From assembly GCA_035546035.1 (NCBI GenBank), contig DASZXC010000008.1, positions 5,202-69,201 of the forward strand: a DNA stretch of 64,000 nucleotides, in the 5' to 3' direction. Source of the stretch: Minisyncoccota bacterium (lineage in GTDB: Bacteria; Patescibacteriota; Minisyncoccia; Phycocordibacterales; UBA6065). Below are positions 3,443 through 62,816 of this stretch, piece after piece. The translations under genes and the position numbers were made by a program. Every line of letters starts with the position of its first letter. Within the stretch, counting starts at the first letter, position 1. Under the pieces are notes generated by a model. The model was not told where the DNA came from. It searched no databases and worked only from the letters and a program-made list of their open reading frames with translations.

Positions 3443-4741
3443 TCAAAATACGGATTTTACGGCCGCGATCAGATCCGTCGAACGGAAATAGGTCGAAAGC
3501 TCGCTCTTCCAATTCGGATCTTTTATGGAAACGTCGGGCACGACGCCGTTCGATTCGACAGGCTGATTGTCGTCGCGGAGCGTAAGGCTGTGAACGAGGA
3601 GCATCGAGTATCTCTCGCTCGGATCGATGACGGTCTCGATCGGAAACGTATTCTCGACGGTGCCCCATCCGCGCGTCGTTTCCCCGACCGAATGCGCGAG
3701 GCCGAGGCGCTTCATGGCGGCGGTCGTCACTTCAGCCGTCGACTGGCTCGCCCCATCGGTCAATATGGCGATCTCTTTGTATCGTCCGAGCTCGGCGAAT
3801 TTCGGCGCGGTCGTGCGCTGCGGCTTGTATTCGCCCTGATGGTACAGGTCATATGCGTACTGATTCTCTCCTATGAAAAGCCCGACGAATGCGGCCGCGA
3901 AGTCGAGCGATCCGCCCAGATTGCCGCGAAGGTCTATGATCATACTCGATAGGCCGGGCGTAGTCGTCGCTGACAGGATCGTCCTACCGAATTCGATGAA
4001 CGTCGTCGGCGATATGCTTGAAATGCTCACGTAAAGCGTCTTCCCTACCGCTTTGCTTTTGACCGTCGGCTCTATACCGCCCGCGTCATAGAGGTCTTTG
4101 GTATTCGGATTGGCGAGCACCTCCTTTGCATACGACACCTGTTCGAGCTCCTTTCGCGCTTCGGACGATGTCTTGGCTTCTGCGGCAAGGACCTTCTGCT
4201 TTTCCTCTGCTGCTTTGTTCACGTCTTCGGCGCTCGCGCCTGCGGCCAAGCCGAGGTCCTGATAGAGATTCTTCTCCGGATGGATATTGCTTACCCCCTG
4301 GCGCAGTTCGGTTTCCTGTACGGCGGAAAGGAGCTGCCCATGCCCCACGGGCTGCAGGTTATAGAGAGCGATGATGAGCGTATCCACGACCATCTGCTTT
4401 TTTGCGGCAGTGGACGTCGCGGCATCGATCGCGGTCTTGAGCATTTCTGCCGTCCCGACGCGGTTGCGAGTCGCGAGAAGCGGCACGACGGGGCTATTCA
4501 GGGCTTTCTGGAGCGAAAGCTGGAAATGGTCCGCCACCTGCTCTTCCGTCGTCGAAGCCCAGTAATTCTCGCGGATCTTGTCGTACGCTTCCATACCGAA
4601 ACGCACGTATGGGTCGGATTCTTCAGGAGTTTTATATGTCGCTTCAGCGGCGCGAGAATTCAGGCTGTGGAGCGTTGCGAACACGGCACCGCCGGCAAGT
4701 GCGAGAGAAAGGACAATAACGACGATACGTTTCAATGACAT
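3443..4741 (-). CDS. C-terminal processing (tail-specific) peptidase, S41 family, with N-terminal TM anchor and a J-domain-like insert
   Basis: S41 motifs are present (IIDLRGNLGG, TDGASQSTAEV). Confidence 0.75.
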   Translation of the reverse strand: MSLKRIVVIVLSLALAGGAVFATLHSLNSRAAEATYKTPEESDPYVRFGMEAYDKIRENYWASTTEEQVADHFQLSLQKALNSPVVPLLATRNRVGTAEMLKTAIDAATSTAAKKQMVVDTLIIALYNLQPVGHGQLLSAVQETELRQGVSNIHPEKNLYQDLGLAAGASAEDVNKAAEEKQKVLAAEAKTSSEARKELEQVSYAKEVLANPNTKDLYDAGGIEPTVKSKAVGKTLYVSISSISPTTFIEFGRTILSATTTPGLSSMIIDLRGNLGGSLDFAAAFVGLFIGENQYAYDLYHQGEYKPQRTTAPKFAELGRYKEIAILTDGASQSTAEVTTAAMKRLGLAHSVGETTRGWGTVENTFPIETVIDPSERYSMLLVHSLTLRDDNQPVESNGVVPDVSIKDPNWKSELSTYFRSTDLIAAVKSVF

Positions 4742-7317
4742 GTAGAGGGGGCATTAGTAATTCCTCGAAGGAGGCAGAAGCATATGGCCCGGAGCGAAGA
4801 AAAGAGTTTAGTCAGTATTGTGCACGCGAGCTTATAGGCTTCAGTATACCAGAAAGACGGCGCGGTCCTTGAAATTATGGCCGCGGAAATGGATGCATTC
4901 GCAGGCTTTTCATTATCTTCTTCCACGTCGTTGGTAAAAATCACGACCTTTTCGTGAGAATTGTCGTGAATAGTATCAGAAGTTGCGCTAGGCATAGCGA
5001 CAAGAGCTTTTCTGCTTGGTGGCATAGGCCTCAACGCCGCACCTGGCTCCGTATCCGTTGGGACTGGCGGAGCAGGCGCTTCCGCCGAGGTCCCTCTTTC
5101 TTCAATTCCCTGCACCGCACCATCAATAATTTTCAATTCCAGGCTTCTACTTTCGCTGGGCGTGATCTGATCAGTAAAACTTGAAAAAGACGAGGTTGCA
5201 TCGGAGACAGACTCGGTCTCGACGGTATATTCACCATATCCAGTGCCTTGAACTTCGATTTCATATGTTCCGTCTATTGGATCAGGGATAGATATGAAGT
5301 GGATTTCAGCGTCATCGCCTGAATAAAATACTCCCGGAGTATCGAGGGCATCTTCTCCTACCGGAGATAGGACGCTCATCTTCGCCGGAGAATGCATAGA
5401 TATAATGAGGATATCTCGAGGCATAAAAAACGGACCTGATGAAGAGATAGGCGTAGTCGTCGCGCCGAGCATATCCAAGACGAGCGATGCCGCCTTGTCA
5501 GGCAATTCAGAATGAGTCGATGCGATCGGCGTATCTGACCCCATATAAAGAAAGGCGCTCCGCATAGGCACCGTGCCATCGCCGAGATCATATTCAAAAC
5601 CGATCGGCGTTCCATGCATCCATTTTTCAGAGGTCGTCGCGCCCTTGTCCGCGGTGATGATCGAAAGAGTATTCGTACCGCTATTCCCGACGATATTGCC
5701 TACCCTCAATGATGGATTGCTTAAAGAGTTTTTATTTCGATCGAGATTCTCAAGGAAAAGATTCGCCGGATAGCCGTCAGGATAGAAGGCCGGCTTATTG
5801 TAATCAGTCGTATCGATATATCCGTATATGGGCAGAAGCTCACTTACGGAAGGAACTTCGCCGCTTCGCATATAGCTCAAAGCACCCTTATATCCATGTG
5901 CCCGGGCATAGAGATCGATGAGGATTTTAAGCACCCTGTCCCACAGAGAATTACTGCCCATCTCCCCTCCTTCAGCCATAAGATATGCCAAAGGAGCGCC
6001 GTGCTGGGGAGTGCCAAGGAATATAAGATCGGCCACGTCGTTTCTGTAATCGACGGATTCTATGTACGATCTGACCGCGAGACCTCCCATCGAGTGAGCG
6101 ACGACGTCTACTTTCGGGCAGCCGCAGATATGTTTTATCTCCTCGATCCTATCTTTTAGAGCATTGCCTGTATCCACGTTCGATCTTCTCCAATCATACG
6201 GAAAGGTAAAAAGGGTCGAGGTCCCGTAGCCGACCCTCTCAAGCACGGTCACGAGTCCGTCGTATGTATGGAAGACGGGATCTAAAATCCATTTAGTTCC
6301 TAATTGAAATGAGCCGAGGATACCAGGAACGATGACGACCGGCCTTTTAAGAGAGGACTCTCCGAGATTCTGCTCTAACGCAGCCGTTTTTTCGGTTGAA
6401 GTCGCTCCGACATCGGGAGAATATGTGAGCCATGGGAAAAAATCGGTTCGCGGAAAGATCCATGACCCTATGCCTGCAATATTATCGCTATATCTCGGCC
6501 CTGACTGGTCTCCCCACCAATTGTTAATTGCCGTAACAGTTCCAGCGTAGGCAGAGAGCACATCGACCCCATTCTCTATACCGATGAAACTCGAGTTCTG
6601 TATAGAGATATCGCCTCCTTCGATATGCACCCCTTCTTTTCCATTAAGAAAGAGCGAATCGGTGATTCTAAGGACTCCCGTAGATTCTACGGACAGAGCT
6701 GCCCATGCGGGCGCGTTGAATGTAGAATACGTTACCGACAGATTGCCCCTCACAAGGATCATCGGCAGATCAGTGCAGCCGGTATGACAGGAATGCTCGC
6801 CTCCATATTCGACGACCACGTGAGAAAAGATGCTTTGGGAACCTGCGTCTATGATGATCGGATCTTCCCAATCCCCGGCAATGGGATTTTGAGAATTCGA
6901 TGTAAAGACAATCGGCTCTTCGGCAGTTCCACGAGCCTCGATATTGCCGAGCGCATCGAGGAAAAAGCCGTCGGCCATACGGACCTCGACTCCGGGTTCG
7001 ATTGAGAGCGTTAAGTCCTCCGGGATATTGAGGCCTCGATCTAATATATAAGGACTTCCCTCCTTTATCCATGAAGTGGAAGAAGCGAGAGTCTCGTCAG
7101 CGATTACTGTCGAAGCATGAGCAAAATCGGCCCATGACCAAGCACATATAATAAGAAGGAGGGGACGGAGAAAATGACTACCGTACGGTCGCAGTCTGCG
7201 CTGATTCTCCTTTTTCCTGAAAATGTCCGGTGATATAGAGGATACCGAGAGACGCCAGGATGATAGCGCCGAGGCCGAGAGCGAATCTAAAGAAATCTTT
7301 GTCGAACATGGCTTCAT
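4732..7317 (-). CDS. Membrane-anchored extracellular LCAT-like alpha/beta-hydrolase (lipase/acyltransferase) fused to an N-terminal parallel beta-helix domain
   Basis: 861 aa. A TM/signal-anchor segment lies at about aa 55-75. Beta-helix-like repeats follow. The hydrolase domain has FPYDWRRS, nucleophile elbow VVAHSMGG and GDGTVP. A Ser/Thr-rich C-terminal region ends the protein. Confidence 0.65.
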   Translation of the reverse strand: MKPCSTKISLDSLSASALSSWRLSVSSISPDIFRKKENQRRLRPYGSHFLRPLLLIICAWSWADFAHASTVIADETLASSTSWIKEGSPYILDRGLNIPEDLTLSIEPGVEVRMADGFFLDALGNIEARGTAEEPIVFTSNSQNPIAGDWEDPIIIDAGSQSIFSHVVVEYGGEHSCHTGCTDLPMILVRGNLSVTYSTFNAPAWAALSVESTGVLRITDSLFLNGKEGVHIEGGDISIQNSSFIGIENGVDVLSAYAGTVTAINNWWGDQSGPRYSDNIAGIGSWIFPRTDFFPWLTYSPDVGATSTEKTAALEQNLGESSLKRPVVIVPGILGSFQLGTKWILDPVFHTYDGLVTVLERVGYGTSTLFTFPYDWRRSNVDTGNALKDRIEEIKHICGCPKVDVVAHSMGGLAVRSYIESVDYRNDVADLIFLGTPQHGAPLAYLMAEGGEMGSNSLWDRVLKILIDLYARAHGYKGALSYMRSGEVPSVSELLPIYGYIDTTDYNKPAFYPDGYPANLFLENLDRNKNSLSNPSLRVGNIVGNSGTNTLSIITADKGATTSEKWMHGTPIGFEYDLGDGTVPMRSAFLYMGSDTPIASTHSELPDKAASLVLDMLGATTTPISSSGPFFMPRDILIISMHSPAKMSVLSPVGEDALDTPGVFYSGDDAEIHFISIPDPIDGTYEIEVQGTGYGEYTVETESVSDATSSFSSFTDQITPSESRSLELKIIDGAVQGIEERGTSAEAPAPPVPTDTEPGAALRPMPPSRKALVAMPSATSDTIHDNSHEKVVIFTNDVEEDNEKPANASISAAIISRTAPSFWYTEAYKLACTILTKLFSSLRAICFCLLRGITNAPSTCH

Positions 7318-7344
7318 AGTAGCATTCTTGGTAAGGCTTATAAA

Positions 7345-8619
7345 TCATTTCTCGAGCGCTCTTATGAGACGGGATCTCACCTCTTCGAGAGTGAGATCTC
7401 CTGCATAAGGTTGAACCGACGTCTGGGCGATCACTTTTCCTGACGGATTTGCTATGCGGATGAAATCCTTGGGTGAGTCGATATTGACCATATCGAGAGG
7501 GATCTCAATGGATGAAAGCGGGAGAATAATCGTGTCTTGAGGGAATGCGAACCTCTTTTCAGAGTCTTCAAGGATAAATCCGCCGATATTCACTTCTCCT
7601 TTACCTTGATTCGACAGCAGCATCCGTCCAGGTAAAAGGGATAGCGCTATGGAGGGTTCGATTATCCTGACCTTCACCTTGGCGACAGCGTGGAATCCTC
7701 CATAATCAGTATTCGTAATCACGATATAATCGCCAGGATACTGATATGCATGCGAAACGATCTGTCCGATGAGAAGCGACCCGTCCCCCATCGTCCATAC
7801 GCTTCGCAGGCCAGAACCGACGGCAACGTCTTTCGACTTCTTTACCTTTGCTTCAAAGGAGAGCGGCGCGCCGACGAAGCCTATGCGCGGTCTTCCTGCG
7901 GTCACTTCGAATTGAGGAGCGTCATAGGAAGTGTTGGCGACCTCCTGACTGCTATGAGCCGAGGTATCCGAATCACCAGACGATGAAGAGCTTCCGCTGT
8001 CTGAGCCCATGGAATCGCCTGATTGATCATCGGTACTTCCGCCTTCTTCAGCGGGAGGAGCCGCGGATTCCGTTGCGATCGTCACCGATCCGACCGATAC
8101 GGCAGCGGCGATCCACTCTCCTGTTCCTGTTTTCTGCAAGGTATTTCCGTCACCGGCAGCGCCAATCATTGGATCATAAGAGACGCTATCCATAGATACG
8201 CCCGTATCATCATCAATGCTGATCGTCTCGCCTTCATTGCTCAAGGAAAAAGCGCTGTCGAAAAGAAGTCCTGAAAATCCCGGATTATCGATCTTGAACT
8301 TATCAGGATTGTCAGCGATGACTGCGAATCCGCCTGCCGGGAGAAGCGATTCGCCGATCACGGAAATCTTGTGATTTACGCCGCCCTCGACGAATCTCCA
8401 TGTTGAAAGGTCTACGGATTCCGATCCGGTATTCTGTACTTCGACCCATTCCCTGCCGGAATCGGTTCCCGGCGCGTCATACATGATTTCGGTTATCGCC
8501 GCGGCCGCTGAAACACCTAGAGGTATAGACGCAAAAAGCCAAACGAAAAGCATGAGTCTCCACGCCGCCGTGTCGGAAAATTTCGCCGGATATTTTTTAC
8601 GATAAGAAAGAGTCCGCAT
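7345..8619 (-). CDS. Secreted lamin-tail-domain (LTD) protein with PKD-like domain
   Basis: N-terminal signal peptide. LTD signature ITEIMYDAPGTDSGREWVEVQNTGSESVDLSTWRF. A Ser/Asp-rich linker follows. PKD-like motif TMGDGS...HAYQYPGDYIV. Confidence 0.65.
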   Translation of the reverse strand: MRTLSYRKKYPAKFSDTAAWRLMLFVWLFASIPLGVSAAAAITEIMYDAPGTDSGREWVEVQNTGSESVDLSTWRFVEGGVNHKISVIGESLLPAGGFAVIADNPDKFKIDNPGFSGLLFDSAFSLSNEGETISIDDDTGVSMDSVSYDPMIGAAGDGNTLQKTGTGEWIAAAVSVGSVTIATESAAPPAEEGGSTDDQSGDSMGSDSGSSSSSGDSDTSAHSSQEVANTSYDAPQFEVTAGRPRIGFVGAPLSFEAKVKKSKDVAVGSGLRSVWTMGDGSLLIGQIVSHAYQYPGDYIVITNTDYGGFHAVAKVKVRIIEPSIALSLLPGRMLLSNQGKGEVNIGGFILEDSEKRFAFPQDTIILPLSSIEIPLDMVNIDSPKDFIRIANPSGKVIAQTSVQPYAGDLTLEEVRSRLIRALEK

Positions 8620-8664
8620 GGAAACATGTTCGCATGCGGACTCTTAAGAGAGAGTGAGGGAAAT

Positions 8665-9630
8665 TTAATAACTTATACGGTCGACAATCAAACCGGAAAC
8701 ATCATACAAAGTAATAGTCTCTTTGTTCGCCGCCCACAATTCCCTCCCTTTGCCCAAGAATATGCGCCACTTTTTCAGGGAAAAGCCCGCGTCGTTCCTG
8801 TGGACCGCCACGCAGGCGGGATAGCTTAATCGCCCCGCCATGAATGCCCTGCACTGCGCCGTCTGCAGGTCATAATTGGTCTTGTCGTATTTGTACGGAT
8901 CCTCGCAACGGTTCAAAGACTGCATATAGTCATAGCATTCGCTCGTCACCGTGTTTATAGCCGGGTCGTTCGTCGGATACGGGCAGCGCTGCTCGAGGGC
9001 CGGCTCGAATGGATAGTTCTTCAGGTATCCTTCGCAGATATTCTCGCGGAACGAGGTAGAAATGGAATAAGGGAATTGGGAAAAAGCCTGACCCGTCGTA
9101 ACGACGGCCGTATCGCCCGCCGCCAAAAGGATATGCCCGACCTGGAACGATCCCGACGGATCGAGGAACTGCGTGCCCTGCCCGATCGTCGCCGAATCCG
9201 CCGTCGGATATATGTAGCTGTTCTGGCTTGTCTGGATCGGACGGGTTCCCTTGCCGTTGGTCAGCGTCCAACCCGTGATGTCAACCGACGTCTGGCCGTA
9301 GTTCTGGAGCGTCACGTATTCTTCGAACGGCTGTATAGAATAGCTCGCATTTCCCATGCCGAGCGACACTCTGCCCGCGTATGCCGATCGCTGCCCCGCG
9401 GGGATGTCGTCCGAATTGCCTCCGGAGCCGTAACTCGATCCGCCGCCCGTGCCCCCCGACCCGCCGTCGAGGAAGCCCAGAAGCGGGTTGTTGCCGCCGC
9501 TCGTCTGGCCGTATCCGCCCGGCGAATTGATGCTGCCTCCTCCGCCGATATTCGTCGGCACGTATTTCGCTGCCGATGCGAGGACGATGAAAATGACGCA
9601 GACCATGACGACGATGAGTGCGATCTTCAT
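8665..9630 (-). CDS. Secreted LTD-like protein with Gly-rich N-region and Cys-rich C-terminal domain (paralog of 61944..62816)
   Basis: The likely start is the internal Met (MKIALIVV...). The ORF track extends to 9690. LTD-like motif EEYVTLQNYGQTSVDITGWTL. The C-terminus CEGYLKNY..CPYP..YPACVAV..WRIFLGKGRELW..ITLYDVSG.IVDRISY is shared with the 290-aa protein at 61944. Confidence 0.6.
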   Translation of the reverse strand: MKIALIVVMVCVIFIVLASAAKYVPTNIGGGGSINSPGGYGQTSGGNNPLLGFLDGGSGGTGGGSSYGSGGNSDDIPAGQRSAYAGRVSLGMGNASYSIQPFEEYVTLQNYGQTSVDITGWTLTNGKGTRPIQTSQNSYIYPTADSATIGQGTQFLDPSGSFQVGHILLAAGDTAVVTTGQAFSQFPYSISTSFRENICEGYLKNYPFEPALEQRCPYPTNDPAINTVTSECYDYMQSLNRCEDPYKYDKTNYDLQTAQCRAFMAGRLSYPACVAVHRNDAGFSLKKWRIFLGKGRELWAANKETITLYDVSGLIVDRISY

Positions 9631-9769
9631 GATGAATCCTCTCTGCGCGGAAAGCCTGTTCTTCATGGATTCATTATATCCATACAACACAAAAGCCGCA
9701 TCTTGCGATGCGGCTTTTGCCGAAACTTACGTCAAACCTTTCGGTTGAAGTAGGCTCTGTACGCTACCG

Positions 9770-11656
9770 TTAAGGGAGCGATACAGCTGCCGTCCTCCAA
9801 GCCGTCTGGCCTGCCATGAAGTTCGAAGTGGTCGTACCAGTACCGTCAGTGTTCTTGCTCCACGCAACCGACTCGAGACCTACGGCGTAGGAACCGGTCG
9901 AAAGGAGAGAACCAGCGGTCGTCCTACCCTCGAAGACGAAGTCTACAGGGATAGTGACCGAGTTGTTCTGAGCGAGCTTGAATGCCTGAGGGCCTGCGAG
10001 ATCCGTAACACCCGACGATGGCGTAGACCATGCAACGCTGGTGTTGTTGCTCAAGCTGGTCTTAGCACCGTTCTGGTAGATACCGAAGGTGAAGGTGTTG
10101 TTAGGAGCCTGGTCTGCGAAGACGATGTCGCCGCCGACTGCGGTGATCGTGAGGTTGAACGTTGCATCTGCGGTCGAGGTCGAGAAGTTGTTCTGAGATG
10201 CAGTCGCCGACTTCGTGATCGTAGCCGAGTTGAGCGTGAAGACAGGGCCTACGCTTCGGACGTTGAAGGTGTTACCCGTAGCAGTACCCGATGGGTTGAC
10301 CGTCGAGCCCTGAGTGTTCTGAGCGACTGGGCCGTTAGCGGCGACAGTGGCGTTGAACGTAGAGTTCGAGGTGCCTGCGTTCTGAATATCAGCCTTGATC
10401 GTGAGGACCTTAGTGGTGTCCTGAGGTACCCAGTAGTTGATGTTCGAGAATACAGCCTTACCCGTCGAGGTGTTGACCGATGCCGAGCCGATCAAGGTCG
10501 AACCGTCATAGAGGTAAGCAGCGGTTGCAGTAGCAGCGCCGGTACCGTTGACGGTTGCCGTGAGGTCGGTGATCTCAACCTGGTCCTTCTGAGCGCGAAC
10601 GTCGAACGCGAGGAGAGGGAGCTTGTCGTACTGGTTGTTGTTTGCACCAGCAGAAGCTACGACATCCGAAGCGAGGAAGTTAGCAGCGTCAGTCGAGACG
10701 AGGAGCTGAGCGTTATCGGTGAGCGAACCCGAGACGGTGACCGTCTGCGAGAACTGCGAGATAGGACCGTACTGGTCGATGCCAGCGCCGTCCGTACCGC
10801 GAACCGCGTTCGAAGGAACCGTGATGGTTCGAGAACCGAGGTCGCCAGACTTGATCGACGAGTAGAGGTCAGCCTTGATGGTCAAGTACTTCGTAGAGTC
10901 CTTTGGAACATTGTAGCTGAAGCCGCCGAGGGTGAGGAGGTAGTCGGTACCAGACTTAACAACAGTGTTGCTGTTGAGGTCAGCCTGCGCGAGAACCTTA
11001 CCCGAGTCGTCTACTACATACATGGTCTTGAAGACCTTGGTGTAGATAGTCGTGTTCGTGCCAAGATCGAGCTGAACGCGCTGGACGTTGATGTCCGAGA
11101 GCTTCGACTGGAGCTTGAGAGAAACGACAGGGATCATCGTCTGTCCTTCGTAGACCGTGATGTTCGAGATCGAACCCTGGTCAACGGTGAGGATGCCTTC
11201 AACGCCAGAGTTTACTACTGGGTTAGAGGAACCGCCGGTGGTGCCGGTCGACGAGGTGCCGTTGAGCGATGCGCGGGTGAGAGGGCCTACGTAACCCGTT
11301 GCTGGGATGCCGTGTGCCGACTGGTACGCGACGACAGCCGCCTTCGTGATCGAACCGAAGTAGCCAGTTGCTGGCGATACTCCGAGAGCGTTCTGGAGAG
11401 CGGTGACGTCAGCGCCCGACGAACCGACCGTGAGGTCCTTCGTGAACGAAACCGACGACGACGAGTTCACTGCTGCCAACGCGGCCTGGGCCTTGTCAGG
11501 AGAGATGATACCCATCTGGATAAAGAGGTTGACGAGCTGCGTCAAGGTCATTGCCTGTGCCGAAGCTGCCGAAGCCCCTACTGCTGCGAAGACCGTGAGA
11601 GCCATCGTGAAACCGATGACTGCTGCAACAACCTTCGAAGTTGTTTTAATTTGCAT
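9770..11656 (-). CDS. Large secreted surface (S-layer-like) protein with N-terminal peptidoglycan-binding domain and Ser/Thr/Asn-rich repeats
   Basis: 628 aa with a signal peptide. PG_binding_1-like segment (DVTALQNALGV...GYFGSITKAAVVAYQSAHGI). Internal repeats are visible (TKYLTIKADLYSS / TKVLTIKADIQNAG). Very low K/E content. Confidence 0.6.
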   Translation of the reverse strand: MQIKTTSKVVAAVIGFTMALTVFAAVGASAASAQAMTLTQLVNLFIQMGIISPDKAQAALAAVNSSSSVSFTKDLTVGSSGADVTALQNALGVSPATGYFGSITKAAVVAYQSAHGIPATGYVGPLTRASLNGTSSTGTTGGSSNPVVNSGVEGILTVDQGSISNITVYEGQTMIPVVSLKLQSKLSDINVQRVQLDLGTNTTIYTKVFKTMYVVDDSGKVLAQADLNSNTVVKSGTDYLLTLGGFSYNVPKDSTKYLTIKADLYSSIKSGDLGSRTITVPSNAVRGTDGAGIDQYGPISQFSQTVTVSGSLTDNAQLLVSTDAANFLASDVVASAGANNNQYDKLPLLAFDVRAQKDQVEITDLTATVNGTGAATATAAYLYDGSTLIGSASVNTSTGKAVFSNINYWVPQDTTKVLTIKADIQNAGTSNSTFNATVAANGPVAQNTQGSTVNPSGTATGNTFNVRSVGPVFTLNSATITKSATASQNNFSTSTADATFNLTITAVGGDIVFADQAPNNTFTFGIYQNGAKTSLSNNTSVAWSTPSSGVTDLAGPQAFKLAQNNSVTIPVDFVFEGRTTAGSLLSTGSYAVGLESVAWSKNTDGTGTTTSNFMAGQTAWRTAAVSLP

Positions 11657-15683: not shown

Positions 15684-16037
15684 ATGACTGACAGGAGGAA
15701 AGTAAAAAGACTCATGAGCATATGGATTGCTATAGGCGCGATCGCTATCGTCGTGGGCTATGGAGCTTTCCGAGCCAAGGATCTCGCCGAAGGACCGATG
15801 CTTTCCGTCGAATTTCCCGCGAACGGCGCCAGGGTGTCCGATTCGCTCGTAGAGATCGGCGGAACGGCTAAAAATATCGCCTTTTTGACGCTGAACGGGG
15901 ACAAGATATTTACGGACGAATCAGGCGCCTATCGCGAGAAGATCCTCGTCGCTCCCGGGTATAATACAATTACGCTTGAAGCCCGCGACCGATTCGGGAG
16001 AATAGCCAGAAAGACATTACAATTAACCTACAACTAG
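15684..16037 (+). CDS. Small membrane-anchored hypothetical protein
   Basis: 117 aa with an N-terminal TM helix and a beta-rich ectodomain. Confidence 0.4.
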
Positions 16038-59320: not shown

Positions 59321-60598
59321 ATGATCGAATCGATACTCTATTCCCTCAAGAAAGTCATACCTCATTCGATATTCGCATTCTTTCAGCCTGCGTATCACAT
59401 CAGCCTGTCATTCCTCGGCGCGGTCATATACGGATTCCCTTCCCGCAGGCTGAAAGTCGTCGCCGTCACGGGAACCAAGGGCAAAACATCCGTCACCGAG
59501 TTAGTGAACGCCATACTGGAAGAAGCCGGATACGAGACCGCCGTCTCGAATACGATCAGGTTCAAGATCGGCAAGACGAGCGAAGACAACCTCTATAAGA
59601 TGTCCATGCCCGGACGCTTCTTCATCCAGAAATTCCTGAAGAGGGCCGCCGCCGCCGGTTGCACATACGCGGTCATCGAAGTCACGTCCCAAGGCGCATT
59701 GCTCCATCGCCACCGCTTCATCTGCTATGACGCCCTCATATTCACCAACCTGGCTCCTGAACACATCGAAGCGCACGGCTCATATGAAAATTATGTCCGA
59801 GCGAAGCTCGCCATCGCCGAAGCGGCGGCAAAATCCACAAAAAAGCGCACCCTGCTCATCGCCAATGCCGACGACAAAGTCACCGACCTCTTTCTGAAAA
59901 AGGATTTCACTGAAAAGCGCCTCTATTCCCTCGACGATGCCAAGCCGTACGACCTCCATAAGGAAGGCTTCGATATGACGGTTCAGAACGTGAAGATCCA
60001 TTCTAAGCTTTCAGGCGAGTTCAATATATATAACGAGCTCGCGGCCATAACGCTCGCTGACGCAGAGGATATTTCCATAGATACGTCGAAAAAAGCGCTT
60101 GAAAAATTCTCGGGCATCCGAGGGCGCGTCGAAAAAATAGACGCCGGGCAGGATTTCACGGTCATCGTGGACTATGCCCATACGCCCGACTCTCTCCAAA
60201 AGCTCTATAACGTATACAAAGGAACGCGCCGCATATGCGTCCTCGGCAATACCGGCGGCGGGCGCGACACATGGAAGCGCGACGAGATGGCCAAGATCGC
60301 CGAAAGCGAATGCGACGAGATCATCCTGACGAACGAGGACCCGTACGACGACAATCCGCGAAAGATCGTAGACGACATGGCCCAGGCGATCAGTCCCGCA
60401 GCGCGCGAGAAAAAGCTCCGCGTCATCATGGACCGCCGCGAGGCTATAGCGAAAGCGCTCTCCCTCGCCCATTCCGGCGATTCGGTCCTCATCACCGGAA
60501 AAGGCACCGACCCGTATATCATGGGCCCGAACAATGCGAAACAGCCGTGGTCCGATGCGAAAGTAGCGCGAGAAGAATTGGTAAGGATACGGAAATAA
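59321..60598 (+). CDS. Mur ligase family protein (MurE-like central and C-terminal domains) with N-terminal hydrophobic segment
   Basis: 425 aa. P-loop VAVTGTKGKTS. DYAHTPDSL (MurE-type). It lacks the usual N-terminal UDP-binding domain. Confidence 0.55.
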   Translation: MIESILYSLKKVIPHSIFAFFQPAYHISLSFLGAVIYGFPSRRLKVVAVTGTKGKTSVTELVNAILEEAGYETAVSNTIRFKIGKTSEDNLYKMSMPGRFFIQKFLKRAAAAGCTYAVIEVTSQGALLHRHRFICYDALIFTNLAPEHIEAHGSYENYVRAKLAIAEAAAKSTKKRTLLIANADDKVTDLFLKKDFTEKRLYSLDDAKPYDLHKEGFDMTVQNVKIHSKLSGEFNIYNELAAITLADAEDISIDTSKKALEKFSGIRGRVEKIDAGQDFTVIVDYAHTPDSLQKLYNVYKGTRRICVLGNTGGGRDTWKRDEMAKIAESECDEIILTNEDPYDDNPRKIVDDMAQAISPAAREKKLRVIMDRREAIAKALSLAHSGDSVLITGKGTDPYIMGPNNAKQPWSDAKVAREELVRIRK

Positions 60599-61009: not shown

Positions 61010-61939
61010 ATGCCCGAACTCCCCGAAGTCCAAACGACGGTCAACGGCATCAAAGAGAATCTGGTCGGCCTTTTGATCGAGGACGCCTGGACCGATTATA
61101 AGAGCGCGCATCATATCGGCAAGGACAATATAAAAGATCCGGCATACTTTGCGCATTTCCGCAAAGATATTCTGGGCGCGAAAATAACCGGCTCATCTCG
61201 CCGCGGCAAAAACGTCCTTATCCACCTGTCGAACGGAAAGACGATCCTCATTCACATGAAGATGACCGGCCATGTGATGTATGGGAAATATAAATTAGGC
61301 AAAAACGCCAAGGGCCGCAAAGAATGGACCGCGACGGAGGCCGGCCCCCTGCGCGACGACCCTTTCAATAAGTTCCTGCATTTCGTCCTGGCATTTTCGA
61401 ATGGAAAGCATATGGTCCTTTCGGATATGAGAAAATTCGCGAAAGTCACGCTCGTAGATACCGACAAGATCGCGGAATCGCTCCACCTTTCCGCTCACGG
61501 GCCGGAACCTCTGGAAAAGAGCTTCGATGTTAGAGCGTTGAAAGCCGCTGTATCCAAGCGCCCGAAAGGCCGGATCAAAGCCGTGCTCATGGACCATCAG
61601 ATAATTTCCGGCATCGGCAACATCTATTCCGACGAGATACTCTGGCGCGCCGGCATCCATCCTTTGCAGAAAATCAAAGAGGTTCCGAACGAGAAATGGC
61701 CTCCGATCTGGAAAGCAATGAAGGAGACTTTGAACAAAGGCATCGATTTCGGCGGCGACTCCATGTCGGACTATCGCAATATTCACGGCGAGCGCGGCAA
61801 ATTCCAGGAAAAACATAATGCCTATCGCAAAACGGGCAAGAGATGCGCGAAACCCGGCTGCGGCGGCACCATCGTCCGCATCAAAGTCGGCGGCCGAAGC
61901 GCCCATTTCTGCGACACGCATCAAAAGCTGATACTATAA
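61010..61939 (+). CDS. fpg: Formamidopyrimidine-DNA glycosylase (Fpg/Nei family)
   Basis: 309 aa. The N-terminus is MPELPEVQT (catalytic Pro2/Glu3). H2TH. C-terminal zinc finger CAKPGCGG...HFCDTHQ. Confidence 0.85.
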   Translation: MPELPEVQTTVNGIKENLVGLLIEDAWTDYKSAHHIGKDNIKDPAYFAHFRKDILGAKITGSSRRGKNVLIHLSNGKTILIHMKMTGHVMYGKYKLGKNAKGRKEWTATEAGPLRDDPFNKFLHFVLAFSNGKHMVLSDMRKFAKVTLVDTDKIAESLHLSAHGPEPLEKSFDVRALKAAVSKRPKGRIKAVLMDHQIISGIGNIYSDEILWRAGIHPLQKIKEVPNEKWPPIWKAMKETLNKGIDFGGDSMSDYRNIHGERGKFQEKHNAYRKTGKRCAKPGCGGTIVRIKVGGRSAHFCDTHQKLIL

Positions 61940-61943
61940 AGCC

Positions 61944-62816
61944 ATGGACGATATCAAGGACATATTCAAGGGCCTCTTCGAGCATTTCGGCTGGTTCATA
62001 TGGGCGCTCGTCGGCCTCGGCATCATCTGGTTCTTCACCGGCGGCGCCTATAACGAGAGCGCGCACGAAGGCGCGTACATAAAGCCGCTCGCTCCCCTCG
62101 ATTCCGGCCAAACCTACGGCACGTATTACGCAGGCGCCCCGACAAAACAGAAAGAGACGCTCGATATCCCTGAATCCCCTGCCGATATTGCCCGCAGGGC
62201 GGAGGCCGTCATCACCGACTTCGTCACCCGCGCGAAGCGCGCCGAGACGATCCACGCTAATTCCGCCCTCGCCAAAAGCATATCGTTCGACGGCATAGCC
62301 GGAGCCAAGGGCGATAATCCGCAGACCGAATACGTCCGCATTATATCGAGCGAAGGCGCAGCTGATCCCATAAAGCTTTCGGGTCTGACGCTCGTCGGCA
62401 CGGGCCTACCTGAAGGCATATCGATCCCGAAAGGCGTCTTCGCCTATATGACGAATCAGAAGAACGCCAATGAAGATGTGTACCTCGCGCCGGGCGGCCG
62501 GGCGATCGTTTCGTCGGGAGTGTCCCCTCTCGGCGCTTCATTCCAGATCAATAAATGCTCCGGATACCTGAACGAGATCGGCGCGTTCACGCCGGCGCTC
62601 CGAAACGAATGCCCTGACGGATCGAACTGCCGTTCGAATGCGTATCGCGGCTACACATACAATGCCTGCGTCGCCGCGTACCAAAAGGATGCGGATTTCT
62701 ATTCCCATGAATGGAGGATATTCCTCGGCTCGCCATATGAGCTCTGGAAAAATAGCCGCGAGGTCATAGAGCTCCTCGATGCCAAGGGAAATATCATAGA
62801 CGCGATCACGTACTGA
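61944..62816 (+). CDS. Secreted protein paralogous to 8665..9630 (shared Cys-rich C-terminal domain)
   Basis: 290 aa with a signal anchor. The C-terminus CSGYLNEIGAFTPALRNECP...YNACVAAYQKDADFYSHEWRIFLGSPYELW...ELLDAKGNIIDAITY aligns with the protein at 8665. Confidence 0.6.
   Translation: MDDIKDIFKGLFEHFGWFIWALVGLGIIWFFTGGAYNESAHEGAYIKPLAPLDSGQTYGTYYAGAPTKQKETLDIPESPADIARRAEAVITDFVTRAKRAETIHANSALAKSISFDGIAGAKGDNPQTEYVRIISSEGAADPIKLSGLTLVGTGLPEGISIPKGVFAYMTNQKNANEDVYLAPGGRAIVSSGVSPLGASFQINKCSGYLNEIGAFTPALRNECPDGSNCRSNAYRGYTYNACVAAYQKDADFYSHEWRIFLGSPYELWKNSREVIELLDAKGNIIDAITY

Follow-up and report, generated by a model that had tools for sequence, protein, structure and literature searches.

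The 64,000-nucleotide stretch analyzed here (the window; positions 5,202 to 69,201 of contig DASZXC010000008.1 from the Minisyncoccota bacterium assembly GCA_035546035.1) harbors two genes, A and B (Table 1), which, judging from their translated products, are ancient paralogues. Each gene would encode a bitopic envelope protein made of a short cytoplasmic stub, one N-terminal transmembrane (TM) helix, a stalk (Gly-rich and disordered in A, with a conserved linear motif and a 30-residue helix in B) and an extracytoplasmic head. The head consists of a single lamin tail domain (LTD), an immunoglobulin (Ig)-like beta-sandwich, with a compact helical lobe spliced between the strand ending in SFRxN and the WRIFLG strand. 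Architecture and genomic context suggest that this head probably serves in binding or scaffolding as a module displayed on the cell envelope, although confidence in the anatomy was much higher than in this role.

The similarity between the two proteins is real and far above chance. BLASTP aligned A (8665-9666, - strand) with B (61944-62816, + strand) at 65.9 bits (E 6e-17, 31% identity over 156 columns), matching A167-321 to B179-290 (residue numbers of A are counted from an internal ATG at 9630, 321 aa) across a gap of about 30 residues corresponding to the part of the module missing from B. A common C-terminal module had been claimed in the first-pass annotation of this DNA and was borne out well beyond the few residues quoted there; both open reading frames (ORFs) were present, and all the quoted peptide strings were found in the translations. 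The similarity had been placed in the last 110 residues or so, which proved too narrow. Profile-profile comparison (hhalign) of A orthologues with B orthologues gave a probability of 100 (E 3.5e-48, 219 columns), and at this level the homologous region began with the first LTD strand and extended to the C-terminal end, covering the whole LTD and its insertion. The N-terminal halves, described earlier as diverged, are so only in part: no resemblance is left between the anchor and stalk regions, but the LTD part is homologous. A six-frame hidden Markov model scan of the window with the profile of the shared segment returned exactly two copies, A and B, and no match in the neighboring LTD-PKD protein, from which the module is absent. 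Several long contigs carried one A-family and one B-family member, which points to an old duplication.

Orthologues were aligned (56 sequences for A, 73 for B) and used to build AlphaFold2 (AF2) models. Model A had a mean predicted local distance difference test score (pLDDT) of 84.8, with values mostly exceeding 90 from residue 80 onward, and displayed six beta-strands within residues 88-197, six short helices within 200-277 (200-203, 230-238, 245-248, 250-254, 258-265 and 270-277, with pLDDT mostly above 90) and then three strands (284-291, containing WRIFLG, 305-309 and 315-320). Model B (mean pLDDT 82.8, mostly 84-97 in the head) showed the same succession of strands, helices and strands, with a shorter helical part (206-211 and 239-246) and terminal strands at 253-260, 274-278 and 284-289. 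In Foldseek searches against PDB libraries, lamin Ig-folds made up the top 15 matches and were the only ones with a probability of at least 0.96, about 235 query columns being aligned; the heads superposed better on the lamin tail fold than on other sandwiches.

Sequence profiles agreed with the modeled fold to different extents for the two proteins. The Pfam LTD model (PF00932, profile length 109, gathering threshold 34.3 bits) matched A at 39.4 bits, above the threshold, over profile positions 22-72 only, and B at 19.7 bits, below the threshold, over residues 121-290 and profile positions 16-107. Most A-family orthologues carried a precomputed PF00932 match, and most B-family members did not. 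The Gly-rich region and the LTD-like block recognized in A by the first-pass annotation were both recovered, as residues 30-71 and as the Pfam match. Rather than forming a contiguous domain of about 110 residues, the sandwich is split by 85 residues in A and by 48 in B, and this interruption is a variant LTD architecture in which membership of the fold is kept. Compared with PF00932, known from nuclear lamins and many secreted bacterial proteins, A and B have the Ig-like fold in common, but their family adds a six-Cys helical lobe of about 85 residues between two strands, outside the Pfam model, and its TM-anchored proteins have no other globular domain than the LTD and end exactly at the last LTD strand.

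The apparent Cys-rich domain at the C-terminus is modeled as a helical excursion (A 199-283, B 205-252) followed by the last three LTD strands. That B's LTD match bridges the Cys-rich stretch, together with the strand order in the AF2 models, indicates one split LTD. An LTD followed by an unnamed C-terminal Cys-rich domain had been proposed previously; the LTD stood, as did the lack of a library match for the insertion, but the two domains become one. The tail IxLxDxGx[IV]D had been correctly assigned to an LTD strand, AF2 placing A 284-321 and B 253-290 as the last three strands. An independent C-terminal domain of about 110 residues, able to occur elsewhere, would agree with the BLASTP match being limited to the last 156 columns and with the Pfam match of A ending short of the Cys-rich part, at profile position 72. 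Such a domain is nevertheless very improbable and already contradicted on fold grounds: the LTD sandwich is completed by the strands that follow the helices, the Pfam match of B bridges the segment up to position 107 of 109, and the homology in profile comparison spans the whole LTD. In addition, the module was always at the extreme C-terminus among the best 150 of the 1,329 representatives described below, the few much shorter entries looking like truncated fragments rather than free-standing or recombined domains.

Profile searches with the insertion returned no sequence match in Pfam, NCBIfam or PDB, and a model for A or B was absent from NCBIfam. Against PDB sequences, the module profile gave noise only (a Mycoplasma hypothetical protein at E 0.021, a TFIID subunit at E 1), as did the full family A profile. 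A permissive Pfam scan (E<=10) of module-only segments yielded weak LTD matches in the terminal strands and marginal Cmc1 matches in 3 of 35 segments, the best at E 0.098.

The insertion carried a highly constrained cysteine signature. Among 352 distinct family sequences (database matches and translated loci), all six Cys were found in 331, the canonical form; nine, including the B protein of the window, had C1, C2, C5 and C6 only, with the C2-C5 segment deleted, and three further shortened sequences had C1 and C6 only, while loss of any single Cys was found in none. One protein cut at its N-terminus (P0178) displayed C2-C6 only. Losses occurred only as en-bloc deletions, to C1, C2, C5 and C6 or to C1 and C6. 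The canonical insertion comprised about 85 residues with the pattern C-x16/17-C-x15-20-C-x9-C-x13-29-C-x12-C, in which C3-x9-C4 was found in 331/331 and C5-x12-C6 in 330/331 sequences, while the C1-C2, C2-C3 and C4-C5 spacings varied in length. The four Cys of B correspond to C1, C2, C5 and C6, the C3/C4 hairpin being deleted. The four-Cys module of the first-pass annotation is accurate for the residues common to both proteins, but A has six and the four represent the shortened form. Essentially no other Cys occurred in these proteins, and neither CxxC nor CxxxC pairs were found in the family, the closest spacing being x9. The C-terminus lay exactly 48 residues past C6 in 307/331 sequences, with an almost invariant terminal Tyr, which is unusually strict for a free C-terminus.

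Conservation in even-numbered blocks, the lack of CxxC and the predicted location outside the membrane suggest three disulfides as the most likely state of the six Cys. The deletion series from six to four to two is most simply explained by pairing of C1 with C6, C2 with C5 and C3 with C4. Alternatively, the Cys could bind Zn or Fe-S and make the head a redox or metal-sensing module. In the anoxic groundwater inhabited by many Paceibacteria, disulfides outside the cell are less certain to form, and the Cys are absolutely conserved. Yet metal binding appears unlikely given the absence of closely spaced pairs and the loss of Cys in even-numbered blocks only, as disulfide pairs would be lost, and the only family weakly resembled in Pfam, that of twin-Cx9C proteins, has disulfides.

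A small Cys-rich helical unit is shared with twin-Cx9C (CHCH, Cmc1) and saposin-like domains, the disulfides being predicted in the present case. CHCH domains have two Cx9C motifs on antiparallel helices, whereas the A/B family has one invariant Cx9C, the other pair being Cx12C. The six-Cys count is that of saposins, the disulfide pattern of which is C1-C6/C2-C5/C3-C4, and a nested pairing is possible from the deletion series, but neither a sequence match nor the four or five long amphipathic helices were found. Saposin identity was rejected on sequence (no SapB_1 or SapB_2 match) and on helix lengths. A lipid- or membrane-binding lobe, saposin-like or otherwise lipid-handling and serving the uptake of host lipids alongside an LCAT-like lipase, has on its side the six Cys within about 85 helical residues, the compatible deletion series and an LCAT/PGAP1-type lipase gene conserved two genes from A, but on the whole seems improbable. 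Membrane targeting was proposed for bacterial LTDs by Mans et al. (2004), as quoted in PMC6085458, which also agrees with such a lobe.

Known bacterial LTDs share with A and B an exported or envelope-associated setting and the use of the LTD as a non-catalytic module, as in Shewanella ExeM and in the LTD-PKD protein next to A. In such proteins the LTD is an uninterrupted accessory domain on enzymes or other repeats, whereas in A and B it makes up the whole head, bears the insertion and comes without an enzyme domain. The role of bacterial LTDs was described as experimentally unresolved, with targeting to membranes or structures proposed (PMC6085458). Extracellular nucleases carry LTDs, and deletion of the ExeM LTD lowers DNA degradation in vitro but is without consequence for extracellular DNA degradation in vivo (PMC6085458). 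The heads of A and B could, as has been proposed for nuclease-attached LTDs, capture extracellular DNA for uptake or scavenging, which would suit nucleotide-auxotrophic bacteria of the candidate phyla radiation (CPR), and B shares an operon with ruvA and fpg. This is unlikely: RuvA and Fpg are cytoplasmic enzymes, the ExeM LTD is dispensable in vivo, and Pfam and NCBIfam scans of A and B revealed no nuclease or OB-fold domain. Ectodomains were also near neutral (median net charge -1 and 0) with an acidic insertion (isoelectric point about 5), and DNA binding was rejected on charge.

Both anchors are read as N-in/C-out, which would place the head outside the membrane, because their hydrophobic segments exceed the usual length in cleavable signal peptides and no conserved AxA site is present. 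In family A, a hydrophobic N-terminal stretch of about 20 residues was kept in 55/56 members, and the stalk was poorly conserved in the orthologue alignment. In family B, a short stub precedes the TM helix, and W17, W29, G33 and G34 were at least 90% conserved, the GG pair coming after the helix. The B linker (residues 43-76, pLDDT below 50) holds the motif YIKPLAPLDSGxxYGxYY, in which P48, P51, D53, G55, Y58 and G59 were at least 90% conserved among 72 sequences and which looks like a short linear interaction motif. Family A also has a conserved G-F followed by a hydrophobic helix, as would be expected if A were a type IV pilin-like protein cleaved after the conserved Gly of a class III signal, with the LTD head displayed in a filament. 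As family A carries Lys at +3 or +4 and lacks the Glu at +5, family B is arranged differently again and pattern searches gave no canonical class III motif, there is very little to recommend this possibility; pilin identity was rejected on the missing E5.

The family is large and, among the genomes scanned, restricted to CPR. The module profile retrieved 1,329 representatives of 50%-identity clusters, 1,217 of them at E<=1e-10, and full-length members among the best 150 spanned about 220-410 aa, most of them about 260-410 aa with a typical size near 300 aa. Scanning of one genome per GTDB species gave 93 confirmed loci, all from Patescibacteria-type metagenome-assembled genomes (MAGs) labeled Paceibacterota, Parcubacteria, Taylor-, Lloyd- and Kaiserbacteria or Minisyncoccia, some with generic 'Saccharibacteria' labels. 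A single locus named 'Nitrospira sp.' (L051, JBEBJM010000032.1) lay on a 6.6-kb contig with a Paceibacteria-type ruvA-fpg-B-spoU arrangement and is probably a mis-binned Patescibacteria contig.

Two relatives joined the module to a wall-binding domain, with PG_binding_1 matches of 31 and 28.5 bits (cut-off 23), respectively. P0270 (locus L089, 508-1743) has a TM helix, PG_binding_1 and then the module, while P0222 (locus L090, 7001-8188) has a signal peptide, PG_binding_1 and then the module, without a TM anchor. The first 160 residues of P0222 were homologous to the N-terminus of the PG_binding_1 protein encoded next to A in the window (E 5e-18). Next to the P0222 gene lie another gene for a PG_binding_1 protein and a divergent gene for apolipoprotein N-acyltransferase (Lnt). 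A P0222-based search yielded no further PG_binding_1 fusions. Pfam detected no PG_binding_1 (PF01471) domain in A or B themselves.

A binding or scaffolding role for the head is favored because no catalytic signature was found and the anchors are interchangeable. No catalytic motif was recognizable in the head, the conserved polar residues being ordinary LTD strand motifs. Interchangeable anchors would hold the head at the envelope, by a TM helix in the window and, in one rare relative that lacks this helix, by PG_binding_1. The exchange of a TM anchor for a wall-binding domain suggests that display in the wall zone or at the surface is needed, not the membrane itself. The recognition face may be formed by the disulfide-stapled lobe and adjoining aromatic and charged residues (GY-L, Y-x-x-C-V, F, W-R-x-F-L, E-L-W). 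Genomic context, namely the PG_binding_1 neighbor and fusions, murE and the cluster of exported proteins, is loosely suggestive of the cell wall or envelope.

Several observations weigh against this reading, whose functional part is drawn from architecture and genomic context. Fusions to PG_binding_1 were rare, found in 2 of about 150 representatives, P0222 itself being a singleton. One sub-lineage, to which the B protein of the window belongs, can dispense with the helical lobe, which is partly deleted there, so the lobe is not the sole functional site. The B operon mixes DNA-repair genes (ruvA, fpg) with murE, which makes guilt by association weak, and A, lying between strong hairpins and having its own -10 box, is probably not co-transcribed with its neighbors. 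As to the proposed pairing, a CHCH-like bond across helices, joining the Cx9C and Cx12C motifs, accounts for a Cx9C in or near a helix no less well than a C3-C4 bond does.

A more specific function for the lobe is conceivable but doubtful. Displayed on two paralogous stalks, it would be a ligand-binding subdomain that recognizes or extracts a host-derived molecule, for instance a host surface glycan or a membrane lipid, together with the LCAT-like lipase, the LTD-PKD protein and the wall-bound PG_binding_1 protein. Paceibacteria (Parcubacteria), the largest class of CPR/Patescibacteria, are unable to make lipids or nucleotides, and to our knowledge little has been established on how their envelope is built or contacts a host. 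If the lobe did bind host molecules, this nearly universal pair would belong to the core of the machinery by which the class interacts with its hosts.

The LTD fold family was known already, while the six-Cys lobe, the one-domain TM-anchored architecture and the two-paralogue arrangement across Paceibacteria genomes appear to be new, no description of them being found in Pfam, NCBIfam or a literature search combining lamin tail and CPR. Literature searches for lamin tail with CPR or ComEC returned nothing relevant. Members are presently annotated as 'hypothetical' or plain 'LTD', and the analysis defines a large family with two conserved paralogues at fixed genomic positions on several Paceibacteria contigs. 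A Cys-stapled lobe within an LTD gives a precise domain definition, fit for a new profile model, and corrects the domain boundaries to one split LTD. The finding does not itself reveal a new mechanism, but offers a concrete target for structural and localization work in the few cultivable relatives.

Table 1. Positions of genes A and B, their predicted parts and their neighbors in the window.
Feature	Position	Strand	Residues or length	Basis
Gene A, whole gene	8665..9666	-	333 aa from ATG 9666; stop codon 8665-8667	
A, N-terminal TM/signal-anchor helix, preceded by a basic stub	9562..9627	-	2-23	AF2 helix, pLDDT >90
A, Gly-rich low-confidence stalk	9418..9543	-	30-71 (~45 residues)	pLDDT <50 at 30-52 and 54-71
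A, LTD sandwich, N-terminal part (EEYVTLQN...ITGWTL...SFREN)	9037..9396	-	79-198	
A, predicted Cys-rich helical insertion (C199, C216, C232, C242, C260, C273)	8782..9036	-	199-283	AF2, invariant Cys
A, last three LTD strands (WRIFLG, ITLYD, LIVDRISY), terminal Tyr conserved	8668..8781	-	284-321	AF2
Gene B, whole gene	61944..62816	+	290 aa + stop	ORF
B, Trp-rich TM helix, FGWFIWALVGLGIIWFF	61986..62036	+	15-31	within AF2 helix 2-31
B, juxtamembrane motif YIKPLAPLDSGxxYGxYY	62076..62129	+	45-62	conservation
B, long stalk helix	62178..62270	+	79-109	AF2, pLDDT ~71-88
B, LTD sandwich, N-terminal part	62271..62555	+	110-204	
B, shortened Cys-rich insertion (C205, C223, C229, C242)	62556..62699	+	205-252	alignment with A
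B, last three LTD strands (WRIFLG, VIELLD, IIDAITY)	62700..62813	+	253-290	AF2 strands
S41 peptidase	3443-4741	-		
Protein with LCAT/PGAP1-type lipase core	4732-7317	-	861 aa	
LTD-PKD protein	7345-8619	-		
Upstream neighbor of A, exported protein with N-terminal PG_binding_1	9770..11656	-	628 aa	Pfam 45.4 bits
Upstream neighbor of B, murE	59321..60598	+		TIGR01085 316.7 bits, cut-off 257.3
fpg, between murE and B	61010-61939			

The A-type gene order, in which A always came after the PG_binding_1 protein, was ftsK (- strand), a winged helix-turn-helix protein, the PG_binding_1 protein, A, the LTD-PKD protein and the LCAT-like lipase. The PG_binding_1 gene adjoined A-type genes in L001-L004, L041, L045, L046, L068, L071, L074 and L084. 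Downstream of A, a run of exported proteins extended over 3443-8619 (- strand); the LTD-PKD and lipase genes were placed alike in L003, L074 and other distant relatives, and L001 and L002 also had the S41 gene, a few kb past A on the downstream side. Orthologues of A shared 47-82% identity and came from Paceibacterota MAGs. B was 100% identical to the NCBI protein VHE10_01670 of a Candidatus Paceibacterota MAG.

The B-type order, ruvA-murE-(fpg)-B with a convergent spoU, was found in most of 80 loci, down to about 25% identity, and the ruvA-murE pairing was kept in nearly all loci examined. The MurE of the window aligned from TIGR01085 position 69, and Pfam matched the middle and C-terminal Mur ligase domains only; from its sequence, this MurE appears to be without the usual N-terminal domain.

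The maximal ORF of A spans 8665-9690 (- strand), and the start of the gene is likely ATG 9666, the starts at 9630 (or 9690) given by the first-pass annotation being less likely. ATG 9666 is favored because an identical gene was called as 333 aa on an independent contig and because the family N-terminus MK...GFI is conserved upstream of 9630. The internal ATG 9630 is preceded by the Shine-Dalgarno-like AGAGAGGA, so that two starts are conceivable. Just 3' of the PG_binding_1 gene, a 14-bp hairpin was followed by UUUUGUGUU (window 9664-9725, - strand; folding free energy (dG) -24.5 kcal/mol, z -5.8), and a perfect TATAAT was found at 9678-9673 (- strand), 6 nt upstream of ATG 9666. Given this upstream hairpin and a TATAAT of its own 6 nt before the start, gene A may be transcribed alone, as a leaderless or near-leaderless mRNA. 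A second hairpin of 16 bp directly followed the A stop codon (window 8608-8645, - strand; dG -23.8 kcal/mol, z -7.0). The start codon of the LTD-PKD gene (AUG, 8619) falls within its 3' arm, and the hairpin could act either as a terminator or by hiding that start codon. Between ftsK and recA, a gene for a 117-aa protein with a Glucodextran_B-like domain was found at 15684-16037 (+ strand), an arrangement kept in L001 and L003.

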